Below, in pieces: positions 13,502 to 38,100 of a stretch of DNA of 64,000 nt. How positions within the stretch are numbered: position 1 is the first letter of the stretch; every line of letters starts with the position of its first letter. The stretch comes from a virus. Its lineage: Duplodnaviria > Caudoviricetes. Where the stretch lies: the IMG/VR virus record IMGVR_UViG_3300036985_001339, positions 1,181 through 65,180 of that record; one strand, 5' to 3'. The notes beneath the pieces are model-generated. The model searched no databases. It saw nothing but the letters and a program-made list of their open reading frames with translations, and was not told the origin of the DNA. Both the position numbers and the translations under genes were made by a program.

Positions 13502-13511
13502 ATGTATAGCA
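13502..13511 (-). repeat. TGCTATACAT site beside the promoter of paralog 1
   Basis: One of 12 TGCTATACAY copies. Confidence 0.6.
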
Positions 13512-13516
13512 TCCAC

Positions 13517-13554
13517 CACGGAGTTACTCTATTGCTTATCAGATAATATATATG
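13517..13554 (+). promoter_or_regulatory. Class-1 early promoter CACGGAGTT-N15-AGATAATATATATG
   Basis: 8 copies with invariant 15-nt spacing, all upstream of plus-strand ORFs. Confidence 0.7.
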
Positions 13555-13592
13555 AAAGCAATTAAGCTATCAATCTAATAAATAAATAAACT

Positions 13593-13859
13593 ATGCCAAA
13601 CACAGCAGCAGTTGCAGCAGCAACACCAACAGTAGCATTGACTACAAAAAGATTCGTTATCAGAAAGAGTTTGATCGGCACTAACACAGTGATCTCATTC
13701 ACCAACAACAAGCAAGTAGTGTGTACCTACAATCATGACAAGGTATACAATCAGTTGAAGACTAAGTTTGATCTTATGCCTTGCTTCGCTAAGTATGGGT
13801 CTTACACTAACACTAACAACCTACCTGCATTCGTAAGAGCGTTAACAGAGTTAGTATAG
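13593..13859 (+). CDS. Triplicated early protein, copy 1
   Basis: 72-aa core TTKRFVIRKSLIG...LPAFVR shared with two other ORFs. Confidence 0.9.
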   Translation: MPNTAAVAAATPTVALTTKRFVIRKSLIGTNTVISFTNNKQVVCTYNHDKVYNQLKTKFDLMPCFAKYGSYTNTNNLPAFVRALTELV

Positions 13860-13864
13860 TCAAT

Positions 13865-13892
13865 CGATCTAAGCATATCGTTAAACTGCTTA
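13865..13892 (+). ncRNA. Putative H-type pseudoknot, copy 1
   Basis: CGAT/ATCG and TAAGCA/TGCTTA stems; covarying second copy at 14404. Confidence 0.55.
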
Positions 13893-13918
13893 CTTTATCT
13901 AATCTAATCTTATCTATC

Positions 13919-14023
13919 ATGAAATACGTATCATCATTCTTTAGTCAAGCGAAGCCACAGATATTGCTAGCTTTATACATCGGTCTTTACTTCGTAATAC
14001 GATCTGTTGTATCTTACATCTAA
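13919..14023 (+). CDS. 34-aa membrane peptide (MKYVSSFF...), not in ORF track
   Basis: Translated by hand; one TM segment; ends before a terminator. Confidence 0.55.
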   Translation: MKYVSSFFSQAKPQILLALYIGLYFVIRSVVSYI

Positions 14024-14041
14024 TCTATCTATTGTTTAATC

Positions 14042-14065
14042 AAGGACCTTCGGGTCCTTTTTTTT
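14042..14065 (+). terminator. Intrinsic terminator
   Basis: AAGGACC-TTCG-GGTCCTT plus T-run. Confidence 0.9.
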
Positions 14066-14074
14066 AGCTTAAAC

Positions 14075-14084
14075 ATGTATAGCA
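14075..14084 (-). repeat. TGCTATACAT site beside the promoter of paralog 2
   Basis: Exact motif copy. Confidence 0.6.
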
Positions 14085-14086
14085 CA

Positions 14087-14124
14087 CACGGACTTACAAG
14101 TTTTTATAAAAGATAATATATTTG
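14087..14124 (+). promoter_or_regulatory. Class-1 promoter CACGGACTT-N15-AGATAATATATTTG
   Basis: Contains the Bacteroidota -7 element TAnnTTTG. Confidence 0.75.
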
Positions 14125-14163
14125 AAGATTAATAATAATCTTTATAATTTAATATTTAATACT

Positions 14164-14397
14164 ATGCAAAATTCAATCACCACAAAAAGGTTTGTTATCA
14201 GAAAAAGTCTAATTGGTACAAACACAGTAATTAGTTTTACTAACAACAAAAATGAGTTGATGACTTATGACCATGACAAAGTCTATAACCAACTAAAAAC
14301 AAAGTTTGACTTAATGCCTTGTTTTGCTAAATATGGTAGTTATACTAATACTAATAATCTACCAGTATTTGTTAGAACATTGAAAGAGTTAGTTTAA
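14164..14397 (+). CDS. Triplicated early protein, copy 2 (start MQNS)
   Basis: 64/72 core identity to copy 1; ATG at 14164 lies downstream of the promoter. Confidence 0.9.
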   Translation: MQNSITTKRFVIRKSLIGTNTVISFTNNKNELMTYDHDKVYNQLKTKFDLMPCFAKYGSYTNTNNLPVFVRTLKELV

Positions 14398-14403
14398 TCA
14401 AAT

Positions 14404-14430
14404 GACCTAAGCAAGTCTTAAAACTGCTTA
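14404..14430 (+). ncRNA. Putative H-type pseudoknot, copy 2
   Basis: GAC/GTC and TAAGCA/TGCTTA stems. Confidence 0.55.
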
Positions 14431-14455
14431 TTATATTAATCTTAAATCAAATCAC

Positions 14456-14629
14456 ATGAAGTTAGTTAAAACAGTAAGTAAAGAGTCAGGGACAGTGTAC
14501 ACAGAATACACAGATGGTAGTAATACATTTATCTATGAAGATGATGTGTTGGTAGGAGTTGAAACACTAAGTTTCACTGCAACAATAAGTAATTCAGACA
14601 ACAGTTTAGTTGAGTTTGTAGAATTATAA
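14456..14629 (+). CDS. 57-aa acidic protein (MKLVKTVSKE...), not in ORF track
   Basis: Translated by hand; lies between the pseudoknot and a terminator. Confidence 0.65.
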   Translation: MKLVKTVSKESGTVYTEYTDGSNTFIYEDDVLVGVETLSFTATISNSDNSLVEFVEL

Positions 14630-14646
14630 TAACATAGTAACTAAAT

Positions 14647-14668
14647 AACCCTCAGAAATGGGGGTTTT
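14647..14668 (+). terminator. Intrinsic terminator
   Basis: AACCCTCA-GAAA-TGGGGGTT plus T. Confidence 0.75.
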
Positions 14669-14672
14669 ACTA

Positions 14673-14710
14673 CACAGACTTATAAAGACACAAGTCAGAT
14701 AATATCTTTG
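14673..14710 (+). promoter_or_regulatory. Class-1 promoter variant CACAGACTT-N15-AGATAATATCTTTG
   Basis: 15-nt spacing; TAnnTTTG. Confidence 0.7.
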
Positions 14711-14738
14711 AAATTAATAATAACTTAAATCAATCATT

Positions 14739-14915
14739 ATGAGTATTTACACAGAAGAGAACATTGTAACATTAGACAACAAACAGTATGAAAAACTATT
14801 TAATCATCCCTATGATGAGAAGTATAGAATTATCTTTAGTGATGAAGATTATGATTACATCGAAGATGAGCGTATGATCGCTATATTAGATGAAGAATAT
14901 TATAAGTTAGTGTAA
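14739..14915 (+). CDS. 58-aa acidic Tyr-rich protein (MSIYTEEN...), not in ORF track
   Basis: Translated by hand; has its own promoter and terminator. Confidence 0.7.
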   Translation: MSIYTEENIVTLDNKQYEKLFNHPYDEKYRIIFSDEDYDYIEDERMIAILDEEYYKLV

Positions 14916-14927
14916 CATATCTAATCT

Positions 14928-14950
14928 AAGACCCTCGAAAGAGGGTTTTT
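14928..14950 (+). terminator. Intrinsic terminator
   Basis: ACCCTC-GAAA-GAGGGT plus T-run. Confidence 0.85.
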
Positions 14951-15028
14951 ACTCTACTTAATTGTGGAATTGGCAGGCAGAGGTGTGCGTAGTCGCTAAT
15001 GAAGGAATATAACTGGTAATACCATAGT

Positions 15029-15038
15029 ATGTATAGCA
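15029..15038 (-). repeat. TGCTATACAT site beside the promoter of paralog 3
   Basis: Exact motif copy. Confidence 0.6.
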
Positions 15039-15041
15039 CTT

Positions 15042-15079
15042 CACGGACTTACGACGTTTAATATTTGATAATATATTCG
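15042..15079 (+). promoter_or_regulatory. Class-1 promoter CACGGACTT-N15-TGATAATATATTCG
   Basis: 15-nt spacing. Confidence 0.7.
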
Positions 15080-15118
15080 AAGATTAATAATAATCTTTAT
15101 AATTTTAATTAATAAACT

Positions 15119-15415
15119 ATGCCAGTAAAAACTTCAAAAGCGGTTGTAGCAGCGATAGCAGCTCCCGCAGTAGTAACAACTACAAAAAATGCTTTAACGA
15201 CTAAACGCTTCGTTATTCGCAAGTCATTAATAGGCACTAACACAGTAATTAGTTTTACTAATGTTAAGCAAATACTATGTACTTACGACCACGACTTAGT
15301 TTATAACGCTTTAAAAGCTAAATTTGACCTTATGCCTTGCTTTGAAAAGTATGGTAGTTATACTAATACTAATAATTTACCCGCTTTCGTTAGAGCGTTA
15401 CCAACTTTAGTATAA
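15119..15415 (+). CDS. Triplicated early protein, copy 3
   Basis: 62/72 core identity to copy 1. Confidence 0.9.
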   Translation: MPVKTSKAVVAAIAAPAVVTTTKNALTTKRFVIRKSLIGTNTVISFTNVKQILCTYDHDLVYNALKAKFDLMPCFEKYGSYTNTNNLPAFVRALPTLV

Positions 15416-15426
15416 TTAATTAAATA

Positions 15427-15452
15427 AGTCGCCTTCGGGCGGCTTTTTTTTT
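15427..15452 (+). terminator. Intrinsic terminator
   Basis: AGTCGCC-TTCG-GGCGGCT plus T-run. Confidence 0.9.
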
Positions 15453-15454
15453 AT

Positions 15455-15637
15455 TTATAATGAGTGCCTGTGCACTGTTCTTCTGTGTACATTTAGCAAT
15501 AAAGCTATTGAAGTAACAGAATTAAATGGAAATAACGCTCTTAATTTAGTGACTTTCTCTTTAGTAGTGATTGACTTGTCTTTACTTATTTCAGTAGCAA
15601 TAATCCAATCTTCAATTGACCATTTAGATGTTCTCAT
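15455..15637 (-). CDS. Small HTH protein
   Basis: SVTSIALLLNVHRRTVHRH HTH pattern; has its own class-2 promoter. Confidence 0.65.
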   Translation of the reverse strand: MRTSKWSIEDWIIATEISKDKSITTKEKVTKLRALFPFNSVTSIALLLNVHRRTVHRHSL

Positions 15638-15660
15638 TTTATAATTATTTATAGTTATAT

Positions 15661-15692
15661 CTATATAATCACAGGTTGTCTCACTTATTTAC
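15661..15692 (-). promoter_or_regulatory. Class-2 promoter GTAAA-N15-GTGATTATATAG
   Basis: Full match; upstream of the HTH gene. Confidence 0.6.
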
Positions 15693-15703
15693 AAGTTAAA
15701 CAG

Positions 15704-15750
15704 TATGACAATAGCCCCTTACTCTTCTTACTTAATACCCTAATGTCATA
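15704..15750. promoter_or_regulatory. Split inverted repeat TATGACAATAG-N25-CTAATGTCATA (operator or ori candidate)
   Basis: Same half-sites recur at 23539-23584. Confidence 0.5.
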
Positions 15751-15792
15751 GTTTACATTTTAGTTTCTTTTTAGTGTTTTTGCTATACACTT

Positions 15793-15830
15793 CACGGACT
15801 TTTTTAAATTTACTACAGATAATATGTTTG
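15793..15830 (+). promoter_or_regulatory. Class-1 promoter CACGGACTT-N15-AGATAATATGTTTG
   Basis: 15-nt spacing; preceded by TGCTATACAC at 15781. Confidence 0.75.
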
Positions 15831-15933
15831 AAATTAATAATTAACAGTGTAAAAACTGTTATAAAGAGCAGAGAGAGTCTGTAATACACCTCTCGTAGTA
15901 TTTTAACTAATAAACATTTTAACACCTTAAACT

Positions 15934-16179
15934 ATGCAAGAATTAATCGAGAACATCCAATCTATTGAAGGTTTACTAGAGTTTAATATCGAGCCAGGTT
16001 ACTGGCAAGATGAAGACGGTAACGAAGTTCAAGTAAACTTGATAATACTCCATCATTTATTTAGTTCCTTTGAAGATGAAACTTACTTAGAACTAATGAG
16101 TCTATTTCCTGAGAATACTGATGAGTATGAAGATGAGGAAGGATACTATGTTTCAACCTTCATAGATTATAAGGTTTAA
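15934..16179 (+). CDS. Highly acidic early protein
   Basis: 81 aa, Glu/Asp-rich. Confidence 0.7.
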   Translation: MQELIENIQSIEGLLEFNIEPGYWQDEDGNEVQVNLIILHHLFSSFEDETYLELMSLFPENTDEYEDEEGYYVSTFIDYKV

Positions 16180-16184
16180 AACCC

Positions 16185-16222
16185 TCCGGACTTACAAATA
16201 TAATAGTCAGATAATATACGTG
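16185..16222 (+). promoter_or_regulatory. Class-1 promoter TCCGGACTT-N15-AGATAATATACGTG
   Basis: 15-nt spacing. Confidence 0.7.
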
Positions 16223-16260
16223 AAATAAATAATTAATTTAACCTTTAACACCTAATTCCT

Positions 16261-16467
16261 ATGTCAAACAAAGTATCAAGTTACAAGCGCAGAGAGTCTA
16301 CAATCTGGTTAAACAAAGTAGAATACACTGGTTTTTTAATTGGTTCATTACCGTCAAGGTTTGCCTACATCTACGATGAAGACGAAGAACGAGATGGAAT
16401 ATCAAGTTGGTTTAACTTCAGAGGTTTAACCTACATAGCCAAAAGAGACTTACAAACTGGTTGGTAA
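16261..16467 (+). CDS. Hypothetical early protein
   Basis: Directly after a promoter. Confidence 0.7.
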   Translation: MSNKVSSYKRRESTIWLNKVEYTGFLIGSLPSRFAYIYDEDEERDGISSWFNFRGLTYIAKRDLQTGW

Positions 16468-16468
16468 T

Positions 16469-16660
16469 ATGAGTTGTGGTTTTAATAGTGATGCTATCGA
16501 TGGTTTCAAAGCTTTCATCCTCTGTGGTGGAAGCAGAGACCAGGTAGTTCGCGAGATGTCTGAGTATATTTATACACAGTGTACTTGGGATTCCAATTGG
16601 GAAAGACACGAGTTATTAGAAAAATTAATCAAAATAGTATATAATGAAGAAATACAGTAA
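16469..16660 (+). CDS. Hypothetical early protein
   Basis: Coupled to the previous ORF. Confidence 0.6.
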   Translation: MSCGFNSDAIDGFKAFILCGGSRDQVVREMSEYIYTQCTWDSNWERHELLEKLIKIVYNEEIQ

Positions 16661-16745
16661 GATTGCTAGTATAATATTATTAAAGTTCAAAGTTGGATTT
16701 ATTAACCTTGCTATTGGCGCAGGTCAGGCATTAAGAAGCTAAAAT

Positions 16746-16994
16746 ATGGAAGCAGCAGCACAATTAGCTCATGACTACATGAAGCAAGTTAAACAAAATA
16801 GAGTGGATGAGCATAGGCATCTGCACTCACACGAGAGACGCTGTGGCGGACTTACGTACTCTGAATGGAAGTTGCCCGTTAGGCAGAAGACAACGTTTAG
16901 TAAGGGTAAGAAGTTCGCTAGCACTCGACTGTGGAGTTACAAGTCTGTGCCAACAGAAGACGGGTTTAAATCATTAACTATTAAAACTATATAA
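16746..16994 (+). CDS. Hypothetical early protein
   Basis: In operon. Confidence 0.6.
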   Translation: MEAAAQLAHDYMKQVKQNRVDEHRHLHSHERRCGGLTYSEWKLPVRQKTTFSKGKKFASTRLWSYKSVPTEDGFKSLTIKTI

Positions 16995-16996
16995 TC

Positions 16997-17506
16997 ATGA
17001 GTAAATTAAGAGTGGCACAAGTGCCTAAAGAATTCAGAAATCAGATGTTCTCTAATATGGTTACCATAAGAGGTAGAGAGGGAACACTAGAAGCATGCGA
17101 GAATAACATTACATTATCTGAAGCTTTTCCGTGGCTATTAACGCCTGAAGGTCATAAATTCTGGGAAGATATAAGTAATGGTAAAACTCCTAAACCAGTT
17201 GGCGTTAGTGCGGTTGGTGAAACATTAGAACAAGTGGTACAAGAAGCAGAACGAAGAGGATTCGCTAACGGTGTACATACTAAATGGGGTCAAATCAAAG
17301 AACGATTCAATGGTAATTCTGCAATTCAAGAACATGAGTTACAAGATGATGGTACGTTCTATTACAGAAACATTAAGGTTCGTAAAGCAAATGGTAAATG
17401 GATTAAACCTTTATCCGCTGCTGAGTCTGATGGTGGGACTGAGGTCGATGTAGATGCTATACACGCTTTTCTTAAGAAATTAGTTGAGAAAATTCATTTG
17501 AATTAA
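16997..17506 (+). CDS. Hypothetical early protein
   Basis: 169 aa; F.W..TPEGH.FW motif. Confidence 0.7.
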   Translation: MSKLRVAQVPKEFRNQMFSNMVTIRGREGTLEACENNITLSEAFPWLLTPEGHKFWEDISNGKTPKPVGVSAVGETLEQVVQEAERRGFANGVHTKWGQIKERFNGNSAIQEHELQDDGTFYYRNIKVRKANGKWIKPLSAAESDGGTEVDVDAIHAFLKKLVEKIHLN

Positions 17507-17510
17507 AGAT

Positions 17511-17630
17511 AGCGGTCGCTTGACTCAGATAGTACAGCGACAATCATTGGAACCGCTGAAGTTCTCGAATGGTGGCGTAAGCTAAAGGGTAATCTTACAA
17601 CGGCGGAGTGCCTATTCCTTAATCTCCGCT
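17511..17630 (+). ncRNA. Structured intergenic RNA candidate
   Basis: GC-rich stems AGCGGT/ACCGCT, GTCGCT/AGCGAC, GTAAG/CTTAC and GGCGGAG/CTCCGCT. Confidence 0.4.
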
Positions 17631-17634
17631 AAAT

Positions 17635-17706
17635 GACCAAGTACTGGGTTTCAATGGCATGTTGCGACCGACGGGTTAAGAGGTTCGATTCCTCTTTTGG
17701 TTACTA
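17635..17706 (+). tRNA. Non-canonical tRNA-like element 1
   Basis: Acceptor GACCAAG/TTTGGTT and T-arm AGAGG-TTCGATT-CCTCT; no canonical D or anticodon arm. Confidence 0.5.
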
Positions 17707-17723
17707 ATATTAAATATATTACT

Positions 17724-17897
17724 ATGAAAACATTTGATGTAGAAATAAAAGAAATACTTGCTAGAACTATAACAGTTAAAGCAGAAGACGAAATAGACGC
17801 TCGATCATTAGTTGAAGAGATGTATCGTGGCGAAGAAATAATATTAGATTACAGTGATTTTGTATTAGTAGAATTTAACTCAACAGATTATGATTGA
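17724..17897 (+). CDS. DpnD/PcfM-like small protein
   Basis: F.VEI.E.L.R.I.V.AE....A...VE.MY..EEIILD..DF pattern; ATG at 17724. Confidence 0.65.
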   Translation: MKTFDVEIKEILARTITVKAEDEIDARSLVEEMYRGEEIILDYSDFVLVEFNSTDYD

Positions 17898-18012
17898 TAC
17901 TTGGAATAATCCTCCTGAAGAAATGGAAGACGAATGCGACTTCTGTGGTGAACCATGTGATGGTCACTTTTGTTCAACTGAATGTAGAAAAGCCCATGAG
18001 CAAGATAATTAA
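17890..18012 (+). CDS. 40-aa zinc-finger peptide (CxxCGEP...FCSxxC)
   Basis: Translated by hand. Confidence 0.6.
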   Translation: MIDTWNNPPEEMEDECDFCGEPCDGHFCSTECRKAHEQDN

Positions 18013-18018
18013 TATCTA

Positions 18019-18056
18019 CACGGACTTTATAATAATTTAGTCAGATAATATATGTG
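18019..18056 (+). promoter_or_regulatory. Class-1 promoter CACGGACTT-N15-AGATAATATATGTG
   Basis: 15-nt spacing. Confidence 0.75.
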
Positions 18057-18075
18057 AAACAAAAAATAAACGTGT

Positions 18076-18279: not shown

Positions 18280-18291
18280 ATAATTTAATAT

Positions 18292-18399
18292 ATGGAAAGT
18301 AATTGCTGTGGTGCTTGGACAAATATGGAAGAGTACGGAATTTGCCCAGAATGTTTAGAACATTGTGAATTTATTGATGAAGATGAAGATGAAGCGTAA
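18292..18399 (+). CDS. 35-aa Cys-rich acidic peptide (MESNCCGA...CPECLEHC)
   Basis: Translated by hand. Confidence 0.6.
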   Translation: MESNCCGAWTNMEEYGICPECLEHCEFIDEDEDEA

Positions 18400-18430
18400 G
18401 ACGCTTGCTATACACGCTTTTTAGCGTGGT

Positions 18431-18496
18431 CGGTTAAATCTGGCGATGGTTCAATAGCATAGGTTGAACTGAGAGTTCGATTCTCTCTTATCCACA
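18431..18496 (+). tRNA. Non-canonical tRNA-like element 2
   Basis: T-arm GAGAG-TTCGATT-CTCTC; 8-bp stem with a 7-nt loop containing CAT; imperfect acceptor; no D arm. Confidence 0.45.
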
Positions 18497-18544
18497 AAGT
18501 TATCATAGTGATAACCTTTATTAATCTCTTTAATCCCTTTAAGA

Positions 18545-19582: not shown

Positions 19583-19585
19583 ATT

Positions 19586-21583: not shown

Positions 21584-21937
21584 ATGGGATTAGACATGTA
21601 TCTTTATAGAAATAGAGATCAAAATGAAGAAGTTGGGTATTGGCGAAAAGCGAATGCTATACACGGGTGGATAGTCGAAAACGTACAAAACGGACAAGAT
21701 GACTGCGAAATATACGAATTTCCATTAGAAAAAATGCTTGAATTATATTTTTTATGTAAAAAAGTAATTAAAAATCCATTAAAATACCAAGTTAATTTAA
21801 AACCAATGAGTGGTTGTTTCTTTGGTAGTTATGACTATGACGTATATTACATAGAATATCTTAAAAATACTGTAAAAATACTTGAAAAAGCATTAAAACA
21901 ACCTCAAGACACTTATCAATATCAATCATCATGGTAG
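21584..21937 (+). CDS. Phage protein of the MGLDMYL...YWRKANAIHGW...Y.SSW type
   Basis: Recognisable widespread phage family of unknown function. Confidence 0.75.
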   Translation: MGLDMYLYRNRDQNEEVGYWRKANAIHGWIVENVQNGQDDCEIYEFPLEKMLELYFLCKKVIKNPLKYQVNLKPMSGCFFGSYDYDVYYIEYLKNTVKILEKALKQPQDTYQYQSSW

Positions 21938-22149: not shown

Positions 22150-22619
22150 AAGAATACATTAATAGATATAAAGACAAATTTACTTTTACAGAAAACGACG
22201 ACCATGACATACTATGGGAAGGTAACTTTGAGTGGTGTAGATTTGGTATGCCAAATGACTATACAGAAGCTTATAAAGTTTACTGTGAAGACATGGGTAA
22301 CTTATTGACAATGGAAGAATTTAAAACCGCTGTTCATAAGTATGACGATATTAAAGGTAAATATATTTTAAGTGATAAATATATACGTTTAGTTGGTTCT
22401 TTAAAAAACGAAATAGATATGGTTGATCCTTCTGGTGGACCTTATATATCTAGAGGCATGTCTCTGAGTTCATTTGGATTCAAAGATTACATTGTAAAAG
22501 ATTTTGAACGTATAGACACAGGTTATAAAATAATTACAGAGAAGTGTCCTATGTGCAATCAGGCGGGAGGAATACATAAAATGAGTTGTGAAACAAGAAA
22601 AATAACTATATTATTATGA
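22146..22619 (+). CDS. Hypothetical protein with C-terminal CxxC...H..SC
   Basis: ATGA overlaps; VDPSGGPYI motif. Confidence 0.7.
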   Translation: MKEYINRYKDKFTFTENDDHDILWEGNFEWCRFGMPNDYTEAYKVYCEDMGNLLTMEEFKTAVHKYDDIKGKYILSDKYIRLVGSLKNEIDMVDPSGGPYISRGMSLSSFGFKDYIVKDFERIDTGYKIITEKCPMCNQAGGIHKMSCETRKITILL

Positions 22620-22879
22620 CAAAAGAAGGAACAAAACAGATTTTACCCGAATGGTTTGACGGTGAAGTCTACACGGAAGGAGCAGAAGTTACCAATCCAT
22701 ACAGTGGATGTGGTTGTTATTTATCTCCAAAGGAGTTAAGTATGTATGACTTTATTAAAGGTTCAGAAATGTTACTTAATCAAGGTATACAGTCAGAAAG
22801 TTTGGTAAATGCCTTTTATGAAGGTTTATGGTGGTTTAAGGATAATAATATTGAAGCTTACATGATACTATTAGATTAA
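22616..22879 (+). CDS. Hypothetical protein
   Basis: ATGA overlap. Confidence 0.7.
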   Translation: MTKEGTKQILPEWFDGEVYTEGAEVTNPYSGCGCYLSPKELSMYDFIKGSEMLLNQGIQSESLVNAFYEGLWWFKDNNIEAYMILLD

Positions 22880-23584: not shown

Positions 23585-24194
23585 CGATAGAAATATAAAG
23601 TATTTAACTGATAGACGTATAATATATAGAAGGTTTCCATTAGAAGATACACCAACACAGAGATTTGAGTGGGGTGACTATTATGAAGATGGAACCTTCG
23701 AGTGTTATGAGTTGTTTAGAAGTAAGGCCAAAATTAATACTTATAGAAGTCTAAAATGGCATTTGTTAGTTATATGGTATCTTAATCCTAAACTAGGTCA
23801 AGATAAATTAGAAACTTTATGTAAGTTTATTTGTGATAAGAAAAACAATTTTGTTACCTTTACCATATCAGATCAGTTAATGAAAACTATATTATATGAA
23901 GTAAGTATGAAAGATCTAGAATCTCCTCCTAAGAATAAAGTTAGGAAGATAATATTTAAAGACCAATGCCAATTAACGGCTGAACAGAAACTACAAATTG
24001 TAGGTCAAATTATCGGTCGTAAGAAATTATCTGAGTCAGAGATTTACGATGCTATGCTATACACTCATGATGATGGTGAAAAAATTACTGTTGAAAAAAT
24101 AGCAAGATATTTAGGTTGTTCTGCTAGAACTGTTTACAGAAATATGGGTGAAGAACTTAAAAGAGAAAAAGAATTATTAAACCAAGAATTATGA
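23577..24194 (+). CDS. DNA-binding protein with C-terminal HTH (regulator or replication initiator)
   Basis: ITVEKIARYLGCSARTVYRNM. Confidence 0.75.
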   Translation: MSHDRNIKYLTDRRIIYRRFPLEDTPTQRFEWGDYYEDGTFECYELFRSKAKINTYRSLKWHLLVIWYLNPKLGQDKLETLCKFICDKKNNFVTFTISDQLMKTILYEVSMKDLESPPKNKVRKIIFKDQCQLTAEQKLQIVGQIIGRKKLSESEIYDAMLYTHDDGEKITVEKIARYLGCSARTVYRNMGEELKREKELLNQEL

Positions 24195-24400
24195 GTAGAA
24201 ACAGAACTTTAAAAGAATCATTCATTAGAGACGCGATTAAAGGCACTATTAGAAATGATGTTGAAATTGCTGAAAAATTTGCTATTGGATTTTTAGATTG
24301 GATATACTATGATAAAAACAATTATGCAGAAGATTGGCATAATGGTTATTATTCAACTCCAAAACTATTAGAAATCTATAAAAAAGAAAAAGGATTATGA
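24191..24400 (+). CDS. Hypothetical protein
   Basis: FAI.F..W...LLEIYKKEKGL pattern. Confidence 0.65.
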   Translation: MSRNRTLKESFIRDAIKGTIRNDVEIAEKFAIGFLDWIYYDKNNYAEDWHNGYYSTPKLLEIYKKEKGL

Positions 24401-25188
24401 AAAAGTATAATTTACAAAATTATTTAAGGTATAAAGACGATGTCAAAAAAACCCTTAAAAGAATAGACAAAAAGAACTATAGTGATTATACTAGAGACGA
24501 ACTAATAGCCACATTTCTACCTTTAGTAGAGAATATATCTAAAAAGTTTTCTACAGCAGATCAAGCATCAGGTATAATGGATATAACTGATATAATTCAA
24601 GAAGGTAGTATAGGTTTAATATTTGCTGTTGATAAAATAGAATGGGAAACTATAAACTCTTCTAACAATCAAGAACAAACTATTAAATCTTTTCTATCAA
24701 AAAGAATTAAAGGTTCTATTAGAAGAGCTATTGATATTAATAGAGGTTCTATACGTATACCAGAACATAAGTTAAATGAGATGCGTAGAAATCCAGAGGA
24801 TAAACAAATGGTTGAAATGTTCTTTAATAGTATATTTCAAAGCATAGACAAAGACGATAGTTTATTTTACGAAGATAGTAACGGTGACGGCGGTGGTGGT
24901 GTAAGTTCTTATGCTGAACAGTATGAAGACAAGTCTAAAGAATATAATATAGATTTTCTTAATGCTTATCTGTTTGGTTTATTTAAAAAATATTTAACTC
25001 ATAATGAGTCTGAAGTATTAAGATTAAGTTATGGTTTAGATTGTGATAAACATTCTGCCAATGCTATTGCTGATTTTTTAGGATTTAAAGGTCCTAGTGC
25101 TTACGTCAGAGTTTCTGAGTTAAAAAAACTAGCAGTAACCAAGTTAATAGATAATGTAGATTCATCGCAAGTAATTGACTATCTGTAG
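24397..25188 (+). CDS. Sigma-70 family sigma factor
   Basis: Region 2 (LPLV..I.K, DIIQEGSIGL..AVDK), IRIP and region 4 (VLRLSYGL...RVS). Confidence 0.85.
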   Translation: MKKYNLQNYLRYKDDVKKTLKRIDKKNYSDYTRDELIATFLPLVENISKKFSTADQASGIMDITDIIQEGSIGLIFAVDKIEWETINSSNNQEQTIKSFLSKRIKGSIRRAIDINRGSIRIPEHKLNEMRRNPEDKQMVEMFFNSIFQSIDKDDSLFYEDSNGDGGGGVSSYAEQYEDKSKEYNIDFLNAYLFGLFKKYLTHNESEVLRLSYGLDCDKHSANAIADFLGFKGPSAYVRVSELKKLAVTKLIDNVDSSQVIDYL

Positions 25189-25257: not shown

Positions 25258-25818
25258 ATGGCAACAAATGTAAAAACTTTATCTGAGAAATTATCTGCAA
25301 TACAGGTAGAGTTTAAGTCTAATAAAAGCAGATACAATTCTTTTGGTAAATACAACTTTAGATCGGCAGAAGACATCCTAGAAGGTTTAAAACCTTTTAA
25401 TGTTAAATACGGCGTGTATTTTACAATAAGTGAAGATTATATTTATTCTCACGATTTACCTGTGATAATAAGTAAAGCTGCTATACACGATAATCTTACA
25501 AACGAGGTTATTGAGGTAAAAGCAATTGTCGGTGTTGATTTAGTTCAAAAAGGTATGCAGACACCACAAGCTTTTGGTTCTGCTAGTTCTTACGGTAAAA
25601 AATATGCTCTTGGTAATTTATTGCTGATTGATGATACCGCTGACGCAGACGCTTCAAATACACATGGTAAAACAGAAGTAGTAAAAACAAAACTAGATGT
25701 TAAAGACGCTGCTTTTTCAAAAGCTAAAACGTTTGTTGAGACAGGTGGATCTATAGATACTATAAAAGGTAAATATGAATTAACTAAAGAAGCAGAATTA
25801 ATTTTATCAAAACTATAA
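25258..25818 (+). CDS. ERF-family ssDNA annealing protein
   Basis: YN.FGKYNFRSAEDI and Q.FGSASSYGKKYAL..L..IDD..DAD. Confidence 0.85.
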   Translation: MATNVKTLSEKLSAIQVEFKSNKSRYNSFGKYNFRSAEDILEGLKPFNVKYGVYFTISEDYIYSHDLPVIISKAAIHDNLTNEVIEVKAIVGVDLVQKGMQTPQAFGSASSYGKKYALGNLLLIDDTADADASNTHGKTEVVKTKLDVKDAAFSKAKTFVETGGSIDTIKGKYELTKEAELILSKL

Positions 25819-27680: not shown

Positions 27681-29402
27681 ATGCAAGTAAACAATACAGA
27701 GATCAATGGATTCTTGATTGATACATTCAATCGATATGATCTAGAAGAAGGTAAAACACAAGGCATTTGTCCACTGTGTTCTTCTGATAGAAAACCTAAA
27801 AACGAGAAAGCAAAATGTGCTTCTTATGATTGGGAACGTGGTCTTGGAACTTGTCATAATTGTAATAAGTCATTTCAGTTACATACTTATCAACGTAAAG
27901 GTTCTAGCGAAAAGGTCTATATTAAACCACCTGTTAAAGAACAAGTTGAAGAAATGCAAATAAGTCAACCAGTTGTTAATTGGTTTTCTGCACGTGGTAT
28001 TTCTAAAGAAACTCTTTATGAATTACAAATATCCGAGGGAAAAGAATTTATGCCTCAAACAGGTAAAGAAGAAAATGCTATACACTTTAATTACTTTGTT
28101 GGCGATCAACTAGTAAATATTAAATATCGTGATGGCAAAAAGAATTTTAAACTTTACAAAGGCGCTGAAAAAGTATTTTACAATATTAACAGTATTGTAG
28201 GTTTTGAGTATTGCGTCATAGTTGAGGGCGAAATGGACGTACTAGCATTACATGAAGCAGGTGTAACAAACGTTGTATCTGTACCTAATGGTGCTACTTT
28301 AAATACAAATAATCTAGAATATTTAGATAGTTGTATAGATTACTTTGAAGATAAAGAAAAGATTATATTAGCAGTAGACTCTGATGCGGCTGGTCAAGCA
28401 TTACAAGCAGAGTTAATTCGTAGATTAGGATCAGAAGTTTGTTATTTAGCATCGTTTGAAGACTGTAAAGATGCCAATGAATACTTATTGAAGTATGGTA
28501 AAGAAAAACTGTCTCAGCGTATATCGCAAGCAAGACCTGTTCCATTAGAGAATGTAAAAACTTTTAAAGACATTGAAGATGATGTTACAGATTTTGTTAG
28601 AAACGGATTTAAACCAGGTTTTCAAGTTGGATTGGATAACTTTGATAGTATATTTTCTACTTATACCGGTCAGTTTATTACTGTTACTGGAATACCTAGT
28701 TCTGGTAAATCTGACTTCGTTGACCAAATGGTTATCGGGTATAACGCAAATTATGGGTGGAAAACTGCTTTTGCTTCTCCAGAAAATCAACCGACTTATC
28801 TACATGCTCATAAGTTAATGCGTAAAACTTGGGGAGACATGCCTTCGCCTGAAGATATTAACGGAGACAAATGGAACCAAGTAGCAGGTCATGTAAACGA
28901 TAGTTATTACTTTATTGACATGGAACGTTATACTTTAGAATCTGTTCTTAGAAAAGGTGCAGAACTGGTTAAACGTAAAGGTATAAAATGTTTAGTCATA
29001 GATCCTTTCAATAAAGTTAGAGCACAAGATGCTTCTGGAGACGTTAACGTTTATACATTAGAATATCTACAACAGATAGAGATATTTGCTAAAAAGTATG
29101 ACGTATTGGTTATAGTAGTAGCGCATCCAACTAAAATGTATAAAGACAAAGATGGTAAAATAGAAGAACCAACAATGTACAACATTAAAGGTGGTGGCGA
29201 ATGGTACGATGCTTCTTATCACGGTTTATTAGTACATAGAGATTATGAAGCAAAAACTGTTAAATGTAAAGTTCTTAAAGTTAAATTTCAAAACTTAGGT
29301 GAGAATGGAGCTGAAGCTCATTTTAAATGGGAACCACGTTCAGGATGTTTTATACCTCAACAACCACCAGACTTTTCTAACAGTAAAATGCCTTGGGAAT
29401 AA
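27681..29402 (+). CDS. T7 gp4/Twinkle-like primase-helicase
   Basis: Zn finger CPLC..CHNC, TOPRIM EGEMD/DSD/KDANE, Walker A GIPSSGKS, IDP and VAHP. Confidence 0.93.
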   Translation: MQVNNTEINGFLIDTFNRYDLEEGKTQGICPLCSSDRKPKNEKAKCASYDWERGLGTCHNCNKSFQLHTYQRKGSSEKVYIKPPVKEQVEEMQISQPVVNWFSARGISKETLYELQISEGKEFMPQTGKEENAIHFNYFVGDQLVNIKYRDGKKNFKLYKGAEKVFYNINSIVGFEYCVIVEGEMDVLALHEAGVTNVVSVPNGATLNTNNLEYLDSCIDYFEDKEKIILAVDSDAAGQALQAELIRRLGSEVCYLASFEDCKDANEYLLKYGKEKLSQRISQARPVPLENVKTFKDIEDDVTDFVRNGFKPGFQVGLDNFDSIFSTYTGQFITVTGIPSSGKSDFVDQMVIGYNANYGWKTAFASPENQPTYLHAHKLMRKTWGDMPSPEDINGDKWNQVAGHVNDSYYFIDMERYTLESVLRKGAELVKRKGIKCLVIDPFNKVRAQDASGDVNVYTLEYLQQIEIFAKKYDVLVIVVAHPTKMYKDKDGKIEEPTMYNIKGGGEWYDASYHGLLVHRDYEAKTVKCKVLKVKFQNLGENGAEAHFKWEPRSGCFIPQQPPDFSNSKMPWE

Positions 29403-31536: not shown

Positions 31537-31537
31537 T

Positions 31538-31864
31538 ATGACAGAAAAGAATATTGTCTTTAGAGACCCAGTAGTTGAAAGAGTTGTAGAGAAATTTGTA
31601 TCTAGATCAGATATAGGTTTTGAAAAGTATGGTAATACATTACATGATGAACGTACTAAGAAAATGAAAGGTCTTTTTAAATATTTAAACGATGTACAAG
31701 AAGAGTTAATGGATGCAGTGCTATACATACAAGCATGTAAAGAGGAAATTCAAGATTTAACTGAAGAAGCGTTGATACAAGAATTTAGAGATATTGATGT
31801 AGATTTTGAATTAGTTGATCCAGGTCATCATTACGCATTTACTATAGATGAAGAAGATAGTTAG
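31538..31864 (+). CDS. All-alpha NTP-PPase-like protein
   Basis: RS..G.EKYG.TL...QEELMDA.LY. Confidence 0.6.
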   Translation: MTEKNIVFRDPVVERVVEKFVSRSDIGFEKYGNTLHDERTKKMKGLFKYLNDVQEELMDAVLYIQACKEEIQDLTEEALIQEFRDIDVDFELVDPGHHYAFTIDEEDS

Positions 31865-32443: not shown

Positions 32444-32445
32444 GA

Positions 32446-34314: not shown

Positions 34315-34315
34315 T

Positions 34316-34879
34316 ATGATATATATAGAAGATAATTTTTTACCAAGTAATTTAATAAATATACTTGACAAAGATGAGACAGAATTCCAGGAAATAAAAA
34401 CTCCTGGAAAGTCTTTTTGGGTTAAATTTCCAACAGATGATTTCATAGAATTAGTTTGTGATAAGATTTCTAAAATAGAAAATGTTGTTATAGAACCAAT
34501 ACTAGGTTTCTTTAGAGAAGCAAAACAAGGTCAAGATACTGATTGGAGAATACATAACGACTCAATAATAGAAGGTCAACAACCAGACAGAGCTGCTGTA
34601 TTGTATATCTCTGAAGAACAAGAAGAAGGTTTAAACGGCACGGCTTTTTGGGAACATTGGGTCCACGGAGAAAAGTTTGAGAATGTTTCTATTGAAGAAC
34701 AAAATAGATTGTTAAAGGAGGATTCTAACGACTTAGATAAATGGATATTAAAATCCGTAGTAGGTCATAAACAAAATAGATTAATATCTTATCCATGTAA
34801 CTACTTCCATAGTAAATATCCTAATGAGTTTTTAGAAAGTAGAAAAGTATTTGTAATGTTTTATAAAATAAGAAAATGA
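34316..34879 (+). CDS. 2OG-Fe(II) oxygenase-like protein (DUF6445-like)
   Basis: HxD (IHND), GTAFW, NRL..Y...FHS and R...V.FY. Confidence 0.65.
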   Translation: MIYIEDNFLPSNLINILDKDETEFQEIKTPGKSFWVKFPTDDFIELVCDKISKIENVVIEPILGFFREAKQGQDTDWRIHNDSIIEGQQPDRAAVLYISEEQEEGLNGTAFWEHWVHGEKFENVSIEEQNRLLKEDSNDLDKWILKSVVGHKQNRLISYPCNYFHSKYPNEFLESRKVFVMFYKIRK

Positions 34880-35082
34880 AAGAACAAAGTTTAATTGAGA
34901 TGAAAAACAAAGTAGAAGCTCTAATAAGAGTTCTACAACAAGTAATGGGTGAACAACAACATCTAACGGTGTTAGCTGCTGGAACTTTAGAGACTTTAAA
35001 ATTAATGCCAGGTTATGACGACGCTATTAAAGCCATGACTGATAAAGCTAAAGAAGAAGTTGAAAAGAAATTAGAAGAATAG
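34876..35082 (+). CDS. Hypothetical protein
   Basis: ATGA overlap. Confidence 0.65.
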   Translation: MKEQSLIEMKNKVEALIRVLQQVMGEQQHLTVLAAGTLETLKLMPGYDDAIKAMTDKAKEEVEKKLEE

Positions 35083-35101
35083 TTGTTATTATTATTAATA
35101 G

Positions 35102-35181
35102 AAAAAAGGGGATCACAATTAAGTGTATCCCCTTTCTCTTTATAGGAACATTGAGTATGGTGCTCATTATATATTGTTCCT
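35102..35181. terminator. Convergent terminator hairpins
   Basis: AAAGGGGAT/ATCCCCTTT and AGGAACA/TGTTCCT hairpins between the converging arms. Confidence 0.7.
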
Positions 35182-35187
35182 GATTTA

Positions 35188-38100
35188 TTACGGAGTCTTA
35201 AACTCCGGTACTTTTAATGATTGTGTTTTTAACTCTGGTATCTTCAAACCTCCACTTGAATTAATTTGAACTGGAGCTGATTGATTTAAACCTAAATTGT
35301 ATTCATTATAACCTAACAATGAATATATTCTTTGCCAATTACTATAATCACTATTTAATGCATTTCCAATATTTTGCATTTTCAAGTATAATCTATCTGC
35401 AGGGAAATTACTAGCAGCTGATGTTAATGAAGTTGCTGCTTCTATTGCATATTTATTATCTAGACTAAAACCTTTCCACATTATTTCGTCTTTATTATAT
35501 TCTATAGACTTATAAGCTTTTGCCGTTGCTCTTAACTTAATACCTATAGAAGGCGAAACATTAGAAAGTTCTAATAAAACATCTCCGTAACCTTTTGGAT
35601 CACCACTTTTTTCATACCATTTTATTATTGCGTTTTTAACAGTAGATAGTAATACTCCTGTTAAACCAGTACCTCTAACTAAAGTATCAAATGCCCCGTT
35701 CAGTGTACGTATCACAGCTTTATTTAATCTATTTTTCTCTTGTTCATCATCGTCGTCCCATACCATAGAAAACAAAGCATTCTGTAAAGCATTAAACATT
35801 AAGTTTTGAATTACAGCATAATAAGTTATTTTAGCTATATTATTAGGTACACTACCTCTTCCCTTTGCAATATCTATAAAAGACTTTTTAATAATCCTAG
35901 AATATTGAAACGGCGTATTCATAAACGATAGTAACAATCTTCCTTTTGTACTAGCTTGATTCATTGATATTTTAGAAACGTCAGCAGATTGTTGAGATAT
36001 TTCTGATGTTTCATAGAAATCACGCATCGTTGCTTTCTTAGCATCTTGTTCTGAATAACCTTGTTTTAAATAAGTCTTTAATCTATTTCTATAAAAACCA
36101 GCTCCACCAATTGCTATTGCAAAACTATCCATAAATCTAGTAGGAACAAAACCTTGTTTTAAAAACCAGTAATTTGCTGCTTTTATTTTATCTAATGGAT
36201 TGTTATTTCTAGGATCATTCATTAACTGAGCAAGTTCTGCTTCAGCAACGTCATTCATTAAACCAGATCTTCTATCTCTAAGATAATCTGAATTCCATAT
36301 CGTAAAGAAATCCTCTGTATATTGTTTAACATTAAGCAATGCCGCTCCAGCTTTTAATACGTTGTTATCTCCAGTGTTTATATAATTGACAGCACCTAGA
36401 GTTTGCAACAAAGCAGATCTAACATTCCAGAACATCGTAACAGCGGTAGAACCATTTATCCAATTTAATAAAGCATCAGACGAACCCTCTGCTCTATTAC
36501 TACCAGTCTTCATTCTATATAACATGTTTTCTAAAGCTTTAACGTATTTTCTACCGTAAATAGCTTCAATCTTACTCATGTTATCTTTAGAGAAGATTTT
36601 GTCAACATTACCTTGCCATTCACTTAAGAATTTTGCTCTATTTGTTTTAGATATAACATTGTTAATATCACCAACAACACTACCAAATCCCCAATTGTGA
36701 CCTGGTTCTGTATAACCATTAGGTTGTTTTGACAATAAAGAAACGTCTTTAGCAAAGTCTCTTAATCTAGGATTAGTTCTTACTATTTCTTTTAAATGGA
36801 ATAAGTCTTTTTTATCAAGTCCAGGTATTGGGTATCCAGCTGTACTCCATAAATAAACTCTAACAGCTTGATCCACTAAGTAACCTCCGTAACCAGAATC
36901 TTGTTTAAGTTCTTTACTTATACCTTTGTACTTCTTATTTATTAAACTATTCCAGTCTTTATACATCGTCTGTCTCTCTTTCATCAAGTTCAACATTGCA
37001 TCACTGTATGGTTTTAATAGATTGTCAGTAAGAAAATCTATTTGTTCTTTACCTTCTTGTCCTTTTCCAGAACCAAGCGTGTATAGCAAACCTAAGAAAT
37101 CCTCATCTTCCGGTGGTAAGTATATATCATATTTACCAATGTTTTTACCTAAATTTTTAGCAGTTTCAGGAGAATAAGTTGCAGAAGCTTCAATACCTTT
37201 ATTTTGCTCTATGATTTCGTTCATAGTTCTTTCTAGGTTTGAATTTTTTTCTACTATTTCTTGATACTTTTTAGATTTAAAATCAAGTGTTTCTAAAACC
37301 TGTTTAGTTAAAGGTCCTTCAGTATTCTTTTTAACTTTAAATTCAAAGTTATTATAACCATCTGCTACTTTTTGAATTAAGAAGTAGGCAGTTTGTTTAT
37401 CTGAAAACTTAGATCTACTTGGTACTTTAAAGTCAATTTTAATACCATCTGCTACTTTAGCATTTTTTATAGCTTTGTCAATATCTCTGGCAACAGTCCA
37501 TTGTTCAGTTAAAGGTAATCCTTCTAAGAAACTAGATATTTTACCATTTTCTTCTTCTGCTAAACTAAATTTAACAATACTACTTTTACCTTTAGCCATA
37601 TCGTCTAAAACCTTAGCTCTAATAACCTCGTTTTTTAAATCGTTTGCTAAGTTAACGTTTCTTTCAGAGACTCTATCTAAAAATTCAGATTCTCTAATCA
37701 ATCTTCTAGCTTCTTGTAAAACTAAAACATCACCAAACAACTCCATTAAAGCTGTTCTTCTATCAAAATAAGCAGTAGGAACTAAACCCTTACCTGTTTT
37801 GTCATTGATTTCTGAATCTTCAAATTGTTTTAATTCTTCATTAGCATTATCGCCACCGTAAGTTTTTATTATACGAGTGGCTTCATCTATACCATAATAA
37901 GACTGCAAAAACTTAACTCTATCTATATTACCTATTTTTCTTAAATTACCTTTATCATCAAACTCTTTTAATCTAGGTGGTAATTTTTTAGAAGCATAAC
38001 TTGATTCTCCAGTAACAGGATCTACAGGGTGATTAATAACATCGTAAAGTAGTTTCCATTGATTATACATTAACGATTCAATTTCTGGACCATTTTTAAA

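Follow-up and report, generated by a model that had tools for sequence, protein, structure and literature searches.

What does TGCTATACAY, a 10-base word repeated along one part of the genome of an uncultured phage, do there, and which protein would read it? The DNA analyzed (Duplodnaviria; Caudoviricetes) is a 64,000-nt stretch (positions 1,181 to 65,180 of IMG/VR record IMGVR_UViG_3300036985_001339), here called the window. Here, we report the distribution of the word in the window and in related phages, the one gene whose presence follows it, and the explanations that bear on its function, among which programmed single-strand nicking of phage DNA is tentatively favored.

Sites in the window

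Exact counting placed 12 copies of TGCTATACAY in the window, against a mean of 0.33 in dinucleotide shuffles (sd, 0.59; largest, 3), and 0 of 100 shuffles attained that number. The original prediction had listed these 12 copies, with under one expected by chance and none in 1 to 13 kb or 38 to 64 kb, and it held for every coordinate and strand, for the chance expectation, and for both empty regions (zero exact copies). The full 65,180-base record has the same 12 copies and 0 of the reversed-word control. Allowing one mismatch added only 2 sites (14 in total versus 10.3 expected). The enrichment also survived a codon-aware test (1,000 within-gene synonymous-codon shuffles; 65 non-overlapping open reading frames [ORFs]), in which the 6 coding copies compare with a shuffled mean of 0.76 and a maximum of 4. 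The copies and their neighboring features are as follows.

12794..13132 (minus): gene for the small basic protein P0001 (112 aa, conserved core of about 80 aa), first gene of the leftward arm
13502..13511 (minus): motif copy TGCTATACAT, 5 bases ahead of the −35-like box (13517-13527) in the first rightward early promoter; oriented towards ORF 12794-13132, beginning 379 bases upstream of that ORF's start
13542..18058 (plus): span of seven exact GATAATATNNNNGAA boxes of the repeated rightward early promoter (13542, 14112, 14698, 15067, 15818, 16210, 18044)
13593..15415 (plus): span of the triplicated early gene, three paralogues (13593-13859, 14164-14397, 15119-15415)
14075..14084 (minus): motif copy TGCTATACAT, between terminator hairpin 14042-14059 and −35-like box 14087-14097
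15029..15038 (minus): motif copy TGCTATACAT, 3 bases upstream of −35-like box 15042-15052
15781..15790 (plus): motif copy TGCTATACAC, 2 bases upstream of box 15793-15801, in the slot of the three leftmost copies with opposite orientation
17455..17464 (plus): motif copy, sense, 42 bases ahead of the stop of ORF 16997-17506
18406..18415 (plus): motif copy, intergenic, 130 bases upstream of a MoxR-like gene
21655..21664 (plus): motif copy, sense, within ORF 21584-21937
24055..24064 (plus): motif copy, sense, within gene 23577-24194 (protein with a C-terminal HTH)
24397..25188 (plus): gene for a phage sigma-70-family factor (regions 2, 3.0, and 4)
25479..25488 (plus): motif copy, sense, within an Erf-like gene
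28076..28085 (plus): motif copy, sense, within the primase-helicase gene; orthologous position has the motif in 13/80 relatives
31719..31728 (plus): motif copy TGCTATACAT, sense, within ORF 31538-31864; orthologous position has the motif in 13/75 relatives
37079..37088 (minus): motif copy, sense, within a 2,462-aa gene immediately past the convergence point of the two arms

Of the seven repeated rightward early promoters of the window, four are bordered by a copy on their upstream side. As had been proposed, the three leftmost copies and the 15781 copy abut promoters, 2 to 5 bases upstream of a CACGGA(C/G)TTAC box, and the 15781 copy fills the same slot inverted. A longer form of the word (GCTT added) at 17455, 18406, and 37079 is real, but the extension is only a weak preference among the 257 distinct sites of relatives, whose flanks carry no more than 0.20 bit per position.

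Conservation, orientation, and turnover

The word is family-wide, with at least 2 copies in 55 of 80 related IMG/VR loci, and the family (366 relatives from one scan) has members both with and without it. Across the 80 loci, all ten positions are sharp, position 10 being C or T (195 and 73 times); the core was found 195 times, and the other single-base variants were found 0 to 11 times each. In 4 loci (L034, L044, L061, and L063), the variant TGCTATACGT(G), one base different, takes the word's place. A likeness to the DnaA-box variant TTATACACA had been remarked on. The DnaA box is TTATNCACA, with a conserved 3′ CACA and no requirement upstream, yet T1, G2, and C3 of the word, which fall outside the box, are invariant (195 versus 0 to 6 per variant). 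The 3′ CACA is itself not kept, because the word places no constraint on the following base (A, 0.37; G, 0.34; T, 0.22) and, with position 10 being C or T, the endings ACAT, ACGC, and ACGT are used. The DnaA-box alternative is not supported.

Relatives have 225 copies on the primase strand versus 43 on the other, and 280 sites divide by gene context into 180 sense, 30 antisense, and 70 intergenic. The sense sites occupy three reading frames (113, 49, and 18), one more than the two from which it had been argued that the word is not a protein motif; the argued conclusion stands, and a recognition site would fit everything found. Orthologous positions retain the word in just 5 to 17% of relatives, sites arise at different places in different relatives, and amino acids change at the new sites. 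Site number and orientation are kept while individual sites turn over. In 17 complete genomes (6 to 20 copies each), the layout is the same, with inverted copies adjoining early promoters in a divergent control region, sense copies along the ~20-kb early/replication arm, and almost no copies in the ~40-kb structural arm. At least 18 related loci have a copy oriented like that at 37079, ~9 to 11.6 kb past the primase start. The polarity switch, placed near 15.4 kb in the window, is not a single point in relatives, because both orientations interleave in their early region.

This layout bears on two readings that we regard as very unlikely. The word could be a polar replication signal (origin iterons, fork barriers, or primase/helicase loading sites) around an origin in the control region: orientations diverge there and converge near the convergence point of the transcription arms, tandem direct copies are iteron-like, and no DNA polymerase or initiator gene was recognized among the ORFs scanned. 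Against this, the interleaved orientations of relatives (e.g., G001 and G005) show no single flip, the primase-helicase is ~80% identical in motif-less relatives, and the near absence of copies from the ~40-kb remainder of the genome excludes a role of the word in priming or fork guidance across the whole genome. With an equally small probability, the word could be a loading site, in the transcript or the non-template strand, for an antitermination factor (as in lambda N/nut or RfaH/ops), with the small, basic, largely disordered product of ORF 12794 acting like N in read-through of the early-cassette terminators. The sense bias, the strong terminators after early cassettes, and the location of ORF 12794, which opens the leftward arm beyond the control region and has copies in its upstream leader (resembling the nutL-N layout of lambda), all suit this reading. 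It is opposed by the conservation, in 13 or more loci spread over several primase clades, of an antisense copy shortly after the primase gene, by the 15781 copy, which lies upstream of its promoter and outside that promoter's transcript, and by the lack of a conserved flank or hairpin at the word.

The gene whose presence tracks the word

Every ORF of 23 genomes was screened, without preselection, for presence in motif-rich (at least 6 copies; n = 17) and motif-poor (at most 3 copies; n = 6) genomes. The family of ORF 12794-13132(−) ranked first, occurring in 16/17 motif-rich and 0/6 motif-poor genomes; in the seventeenth motif-rich genome (G001), a contig break falls inside the gene. The motif-poor genomes represent no more than about four independent clades. 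Another 78 loci were anchored on the triplicated gene; among them, the 34 informative loci that lack the ORF had 0 copies (31 loci) or 1 copy (3 loci), and at least 1 copy was present in 33 of the 42 that bear it. ORF 12794 looks necessary but not sufficient: the other 9 ORF-bearing loci have no site and 2 more (L232 and L290, with full 10-kb flanks) have just 1 each. It is the only gene with presence tracking the motif, and a co-oriented copy lies 180 to 1,300 bases upstream of it in 18/18 genomes examined. On this association, TGCTATACAY is probably the target of the ORF 12794 protein.

The protein is basic, has 80 to 112 aa across the family, and carries an invariant D-x-D-H ... E ... N-R-G-N block. 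No Pfam match was found at E values up to 10 (51 members), a profile search against solved structures (PDB) gave no match, and zinc-binding cysteines are absent. The structural model, a predicted helical hairpin, is weak (mean pLDDT, 62), and Foldseek returned no match to it at E ≤0.001. Its nearest named protein-atlas clusters are HNH endonucleases, at sub-threshold scores (0.87 and 0.86) that serve as a lead only; together with the short residue pattern, they hint at a nuclease at that same strength.

Because ORF 12794 sits beside tail-fibre-like genes, which show a weaker correlation with the motif (12/17 versus 0/6), the association could partly reflect a shared module or host range. Patchiness that follows host range would be expected if a host factor read the word, as a Chi- or KOPS-like signal, as a DnaA box, or as a host regulator's site, and the tail-fibre correlation and the DnaA-box likeness are the points in its favor. 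We nevertheless consider a host reader the least probable of the explanations. In 401 Bacteroidia genomes, the word is at background (at most 55 per genome [22+33], mostly below 20), near the reversed-word control, and it clusters on phage-like contigs only; in the phage it is confined to one arm. The set includes two unpublished genomes (G123 and G209), and the result is the same without them; bin labels are mostly Bacteroidota, and the chromosome result holds only for the genomes searched. In these genomes the word is not enriched, and oriented over-representation of the Chi/KOPS type, and with it the Chi-like alternative of the original prediction, is not supported. A host regulator with few chromosomal sites may read the word.

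Presence across the family also bears on the phage's own sigma factor, for which the word could be a stand-alone extended −10-type promoter (TG-n-TATAnn) driving middle and late transcription, towards the right across the replication arm and towards the left into the structural one. The factor has sigma-70-family regions 2, 3.0, and 4 (model pLDDT, 79; Foldseek matches to sigma A chains with probability 1.00). The word starts TG-C-TATA, most copies are co-directional with transcription and limited to a single temporal module and to the DNA ahead of the leftward arm, and intergenic sites are about twice as frequent as chance (70/280 versus 12% non-coding sequence). The sigma gene, however, is present (51 to 70% identity) in every locus covering its position, zero-copy loci included, and its region 2.4/3.0 residues do not vary between phages with the motif and phages without it; being universal in the family, it is not what determines motif presence. 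No replacement word was found in motif-less genomes, and in the stretch ahead of the leftward arm, copies occur in 0/6 motif-poor genomes. The start codon that follows a copy lies 25 to 2,000 bases away, with no single peak in the distances; at fixed offsets from the word there is no −35 element, −10 partner, or start-site signal, and tandem pairs would be odd for promoters. The hexamer of TG-C-TATACA has A at position 2, A rather than T at position 6, and 4/6 of TATAAT, which places it outside an extended −10 element. The T4 late promoter, an 8-base word (TATAAATA) read with gp55, offers a parallel in being short, near-invariant, without a −35 partner, present in many co-oriented and partly intragenic copies, and served by a phage-encoded sigma; here, in contrast, the sigma is family-universal and the word is not, and the copies have no fixed relation to gene starts. 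We judge a promoter role improbable.

A possible operator or programmed nick site

The copies at early promoters raise the possibility that a regulator that binds DNA without catalysis, perhaps the ORF 12794 protein, uses the word as its operator and would switch those promoters off or on from their upstream edge, the intragenic copies being extra binding sites or polar roadblocks. Besides the four promoters in the window, the same abutment (...CTGTAAA-TGCTATACRY) recurs in the genomes of eight relatives (G004, G005, G009, G010, G013, G015, G016, and G022), in five of which tandem copies lie 11 to 14 bases apart, about one helical turn. The ORF 12794 protein, small, basic, and modeled as a helical hairpin, would suit such a role, and co-oriented copies precede its gene. 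Degeneracy and clustering are usual in operators; by contrast, about two thirds of the copies are intragenic, across 20 kb, the word is non-palindromic, and a 180:30 sense bias is not needed for simple binding. Both orientations occur at promoters, which argues against a fixed contact between such a protein and sigma. On balance, we consider an operator possible, at a probability only slightly lower than that of nicking. The triplicated early protein had been put forward as the binder, through autoregulation plus coating of the early arm. That proposal is not supported, as the gene family occurs in 11/11 genomes examined with or without the motif, including two with 0 copies (G017 and G023) and three with 2 or 3, so that gene and word do not co-occur; coating would also leave the sense bias unexplained.

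Phage DNA with site-specific nicks was already known in the 1960s. Localized nicks occur in Pseudomonas phage tf and its LUZ24-group relatives, in phiKMV-like phages, and in T5/BF23, and in the available text of the tf paper their biological meaning is called unknown and enigmatic (PMC3517423). According to that text, phage tf has 14 nicks, all in one strand, at the 9-base consensus TACT/RTGMC, with 11/14 towards the early half (PMC3517423). The favored explanation, possible and put forward tentatively, is that TGCTATACAY marks strand-specific nick sites of the tf, T5, and phiKMV kind, programmed nick sites having been among the alternatives of the original prediction; we infer binding, cutting, and the strand cut. 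The word would serve an accessory system encoded by the phage as an asymmetric recognition site of 10 bases, and of that system just one component is linked genetically to the word, the small basic product of ORF 12794-13132(−). This protein, either by itself or with a partner, would act strand-specifically on DNA at the word, the favored action being programmed single-strand nicks in mature phage DNA. Selection would retain the number of sites, about one per 1 to 3.6 kb of the early/replication arm, rather than their positions, and would keep orientation such that the same strand relative to transcription is targeted, i.e., the coding strand of the rightward arm and, where transcription is leftward, the opposite strand.

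Two features of localized phage nick sites are present, namely a strand-preferred short asymmetric consensus (12 exact copies in the window; the 225-to-43 bias in relatives) and the same or a slightly shifted consensus in related phages (the 55 loci with the word and the 4 with its variant). As far as the available text on tf goes, the two systems share a short, exact, asymmetric consensus (9 bases in tf, 10 here), a similar copy number (14 nicks in tf versus 12 candidate sites here), a strong one-strand bias, uneven placement towards the early half, and related phages with a site one base different at partly similar positions (PMC3517423). They differ in that tf sites lie in one strand of the whole molecule, whereas orientation here follows local transcription and flips in the control region, and in that sites here also adjoin promoters and form tandem pairs. 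We counted the last point against nicking: control-region sites look more operator-like than nick-like, because they occupy a fixed slot against a −35-like box and often form tandem pairs. Among 60 IMG/VR contig ends, none fell at a site (the nearest was 101 bases off).

The nick-site explanation in its most specific form is unlikely as a whole: ORF 12794-13132 would be a minimal (~80-aa) sequence-specific nicking enzyme that reads the full 10-base asymmetric word and would nick the non-template strand of early/replication genes and DNA beside early promoters. Small phage-encoded domains can nick one strand at an asymmetric site, and the invariant block and HNH atlas neighbors of the family recall them. 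Known small nickases recognize 3 to 7 bases, in the available part of the source (PMC8845596), compared with 10 here, and the ORF 12794 protein differs from them in having no Pfam, profile, or fold match and no zinc-binding cysteines. A candidate gene linked to the site sets this phage apart from tf, T5, and phiKMV, for which the available text names no enzyme (PMC3517423).

Compared with those classic cases, this phage family has the advantage of being large, of including members with and without the word, and of having one small gene that tracks the difference, and the question of nicking is therefore directly testable in it. If the protein is a nicking enzyme, gene and site would form one system, through which an enzyme responsible for programmed phage nicks could be named and the purpose of the nicks tested. 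If the word is an operator or a promoter instead, it would represent a previously undescribed accessory layer of early-gene control in an abundant phage group of fresh and marine waters. Exact recognition of 10 bases would also make such a protein interesting for practical use.

Copy number and layout of the word

The window covers nearly all of a virus record 65,180 bases long (G+C content, ~31%). From 13.5 to 35.1 kb runs a rightward arm in which early cassettes precede replication and nucleotide-metabolism genes; transcription in the remainder of the record is leftward, and the genes there include those for tail-fibre-like proteins, a chaperonin, the terminase, the portal and virion proteins. 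The features used here were as follows:

3741-5300, minus strand: Cpn60/GroEL-type chaperonin (Pfam E 2e-59)
12794-13132, minus strand: ORF 12794, the candidate gene tracking the word
13593-15415: triplicated early protein (three paralogues)
23577-24194, plus strand: 205-aa conserved protein with a C-terminal HTH
24397-25188, plus strand: sigma-70-family protein (regions 2, 3.0 and 4)
Rightward arm, plus strand: Erf-like annealing protein; PDDEXK-like exonuclease
Rightward arm, plus strand: Toprim/DnaB primase-helicase
Rightward arm, plus strand: thymidylate synthase; MazG-like protein; ribonucleotide reductase

By primase, the nearest cultured relative was Cellulophaga phage phi10:1 (43.6% identity), and no near-identical phages were found in the phage collection searched. 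Most MAG bins with related contigs were labelled Bacteroidota. Neither Rfam families nor tRNAs were found within the window, and the gap at 35.0-35.2 kb, where the arms converge, was checked for a dif-like site or recombinase and held a hairpin alone.

All 12 copies of the word (TGCTATACAY, an asymmetric 10-base site, for example TGCTATACAC) lay where the original prediction had placed them (plus strand, 15781, 17455, 18406, 21655, 24055, 25479, 28076 and 31719; minus strand, 13502, 14075, 15029 and 37079). Their rarity by chance, also predicted, was borne out, with 0.33 copies expected from dinucleotide shuffles and 12 reached in 0 of 100. Codon-aware shuffling had been named beforehand as a possible refutation; in 1000 shuffles with protein sequences and per-gene codon usage fixed, enrichment survived (6 copies observed, counted in the same gene set, versus a mean of 0.76 and a maximum of 4). 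A one-mismatch search added just 2 sites (~10 such words expected in total), and an unbiased k-mer ranking put the word first among 10-mers in each of the two motif-rich genomes examined (the window and relative G005).

Twenty-two relatives were fetched whole and placed with the window on a common map (23 genomes; motif-rich, ≥6 copies; motif-poor, ≤3 copies). One layout was common to all 17 motif-rich genomes, with inverted copies in the initial few kb (the divergent control/early region), forward copies over the following ~20 kb, and a few inverted copies directly past the primase gene and near the arm convergence. Past the convergence point, only 13 copies were found, summed over all 23 genomes. 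The predicted polarity switch near 15.4 kb was present in the window genome; because both orientations are interleaved in the early regions of relatives, it is a trait of that genome and not a single pivot. A 60-aa minus-strand ORF (15455-15637) lies precisely in the interval that separates the last inverted copy from the first direct one; it had a sub-threshold NUMOD1 match (E 0.049) and was found in 1 of 10 other genomes (G009).

Early promoters, host signals and contig ends

The plus strand of the window contains seven exact GATAATATNNNNGAA boxes from 13.5 to 18.1 kb, each with a CACGGACTTAC-like box upstream and a small gene downstream, several of these genes ending in a terminator hairpin. 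At four early promoters the word (three inverted, one direct) stood 2-5 bases upstream of the CACGGACTTAC-like box. This abutment was seen again in relatives, where tandem word pairs 11-14 bases apart were frequent, some ending in GC. Its slot at promoter edges and its tandem pairs would suit a regulator's operator, a reading that we hold, at low confidence, to be almost as likely as the nick sites considered at the end.

Other elements were observed in these regions. The gap upstream of ORF 12794 (13160-13300) contained two minus-strand GTACAATATAT(G/T)ATACA copies and the near-palindrome GTGTTATATAATACAC, possibly operators or a leftward promoter; motif-less relatives carried different elements (GTGACA/TGTCAT) at the matching position. 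In the early regions of four genomes (G005, G009, G015 and G022), CGGAAGAGTAGACTCCG then CCTAC formed a conserved element between two successive word copies. Downstream (leftward) of inverted copies in the window (14975-15000), G005 and G009, tracts high in G+C and a shared CTGCCAATTCC block were found, unusual for a 31% G+C genome and without an Rfam match, which could be a leader or small RNA.

Two host-type explanations had been offered as alternatives. A Chi-like role was not supported by the counts in 401 Bacteroidia genomes, where the word occurred at about the level of a reversed-word control (the set includes two unpublished genomes, G123 and G209; the outcome was the same without them); as far as the genomes searched go, it is no host-wide signal. 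In MAGs, it clustered on phage-like contigs only. Nor is the word a DnaA box, since its invariant TGC falls beyond the bounds of one and its 3' end is free. Full-text literature searches with the word and its complement as strings gave no phage signal among the matches listed.

Of 60 IMG/VR contig ends, none fell within 100 bases of any site, and contigs of four runs, which cannot reveal nicks, had no place where many molecules start or stop. Six contig-piece ends lay inside or ≤10 bases from word copies (15034, 17466, 17473, 24060, 25483 and 31716; ~1 expected), taken from 32 pieces shown of 1348, a selected subset. Because of this selection, and because short sequences that strains have in common are another cause of breaks in assembly graphs, the excess is at most a hint of local strain variation or lower coverage at sites. 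In run X1, two contigs omitted 1717 bases (window 18394-20112) comprising a MoxR-like gene and part of a VWA gene, a pair present in the closest relatives only; the omitted segment begins, on its left, 12 bases ahead of the word copy at 18406. Among 78 IMG/VR contigs (loci L217-L294), at least 17 ended shortly beyond the triplicated gene, within ~600 bases on its downstream side; these ends shared no common sequence and some lay inside a second gene copy. They resemble breaks made during assembly of the repeated early cassettes rather than the termini of genomes.

Genes accompanying the word

The triplicated early protein, originally proposed as the binder of the word, failed the co-occurrence test, its gene being present in 11 of 11 genomes, including motif-less ones. 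The 205-aa HTH protein and the sigma factor, encoded just downstream of it, were each present in every related locus covering their position. The sigma assignment came from the region 2-4 consensus and an AlphaFold model (pLDDT 79) with Foldseek matches to sigma A (probability 1.00). That this factor is universal while the word is not is the main weakness of reading the word as a promoter element, which we consider unlikely.

Every ORF of the 23 genomes was screened against motif class. The ORF 12794 family ranked first (16/17 motif-rich, 0/6 motif-poor) and was found independently in a separate comparison; the sole motif-rich exception, G001, has a contig break inside this gene. A further 78 loci were anchored on the triplicated gene, and in many of them the contig covered only a small part of the arm. 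Loci without ORF 12794 (34 informative) had 0 or 1 copy each; those with it (42) had at least one copy in 33 cases and none in 9, and two loci with the gene and full 10-kb flanks (L232 and L290) nevertheless had 1 copy each. Given these low counts both without the gene and in some loci with it, ORF 12794 looks necessary but not sufficient for the word. The motif-poor genomes formed about four clades on the primase tree, and tail-fibre-like genes adjoining ORF 12794 also correlated with the word, more weakly (12/17 versus 0/6), so the correlation could reflect a module or host-range confound. A gene-presence screen of 10 kb each side of the primase gene found no correlated gene. ORF 22616-22879 was promising in 11 genomes and was rejected, being missing from motif-rich G004, G019 and G021.

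The ORF 12794 product is a basic 112-aa protein with a conserved core of ~80 aa and an invariant block (D76, D78, H79, E85, N90, R91, G92 and N93). Its homologues number hundreds, all uncharacterised; longer relatives have 200-270 aa, and a few carry DUF6973 (a family of unknown function). No match was found by tblastn against 50,697 phage records, in Pfam, or in the PDB by profile or by fold from a weak model (mean pLDDT 62; a helical hairpin, then a beta hairpin). The nearest named protein-atlas clusters were HNH endonucleases (scores, 0.87 and 0.86), a lead only.

Turnover of sites and a possible nicking function

One IMG/VR scan with the primase-helicase yielded 366 relatives, and 80 loci from this set were retained (≥2 copies in 55, 1 in 8, 0 in 17). 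Their 268 copies were split 225 to 43 between the primase strand and the opposite strand. All ten positions were sharp (core, n=195; single-base variants, 0-11 each, except T at position 10, n=73), and flanks held ≤0.20 bit/position over 25 bases each side. At two separate spots on the primase tree, locus L034 and the L044/L061/L063 clade, a variant ending in GT(G) stands in place of the word. Differences between the G019 protein (word ending GT) and the G022 protein (ending AC) were scattered only, so no specificity residue could be assigned.

At positions orthologous to window sites, the word was retained in 4/73 to 13/75 relatives, with different amino acids where it was absent. Among 280 sites, 180 were sense (reading frames, 113, 49 and 18), 30 antisense and 70 intergenic, non-coding DNA making up 12%. 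Copies stood at no constant spacing from the start codon that follows, and no companion promoter elements were found at fixed offsets. In motif-less relatives no replacement word was found, recurrent words there being early-promoter boxes or coding repeats, so the system is accessory. Two motif-poor genomes (G023 and G011) contained G+C-rich 10-mers (GGCAACGTCG and ATCCCGACGT) at 5-12 occurrences.

The word may, tentatively, mark nick sites of the kind known from Pseudomonas phage tf, with the ORF 12794 protein as candidate nickase. Like the published tf nick sites (PMC3517423), the word is exact, asymmetric and strand-biased, is kept in number rather than place, is crowded in the early genome half and has a one-base variant in relatives. 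A small linked protein with a faint His-Me-finger look would fit a nickase. Judged from comparison of the related loci, the word is a family-wide signal, whose individual sites turn over while copy number and orientation are maintained.
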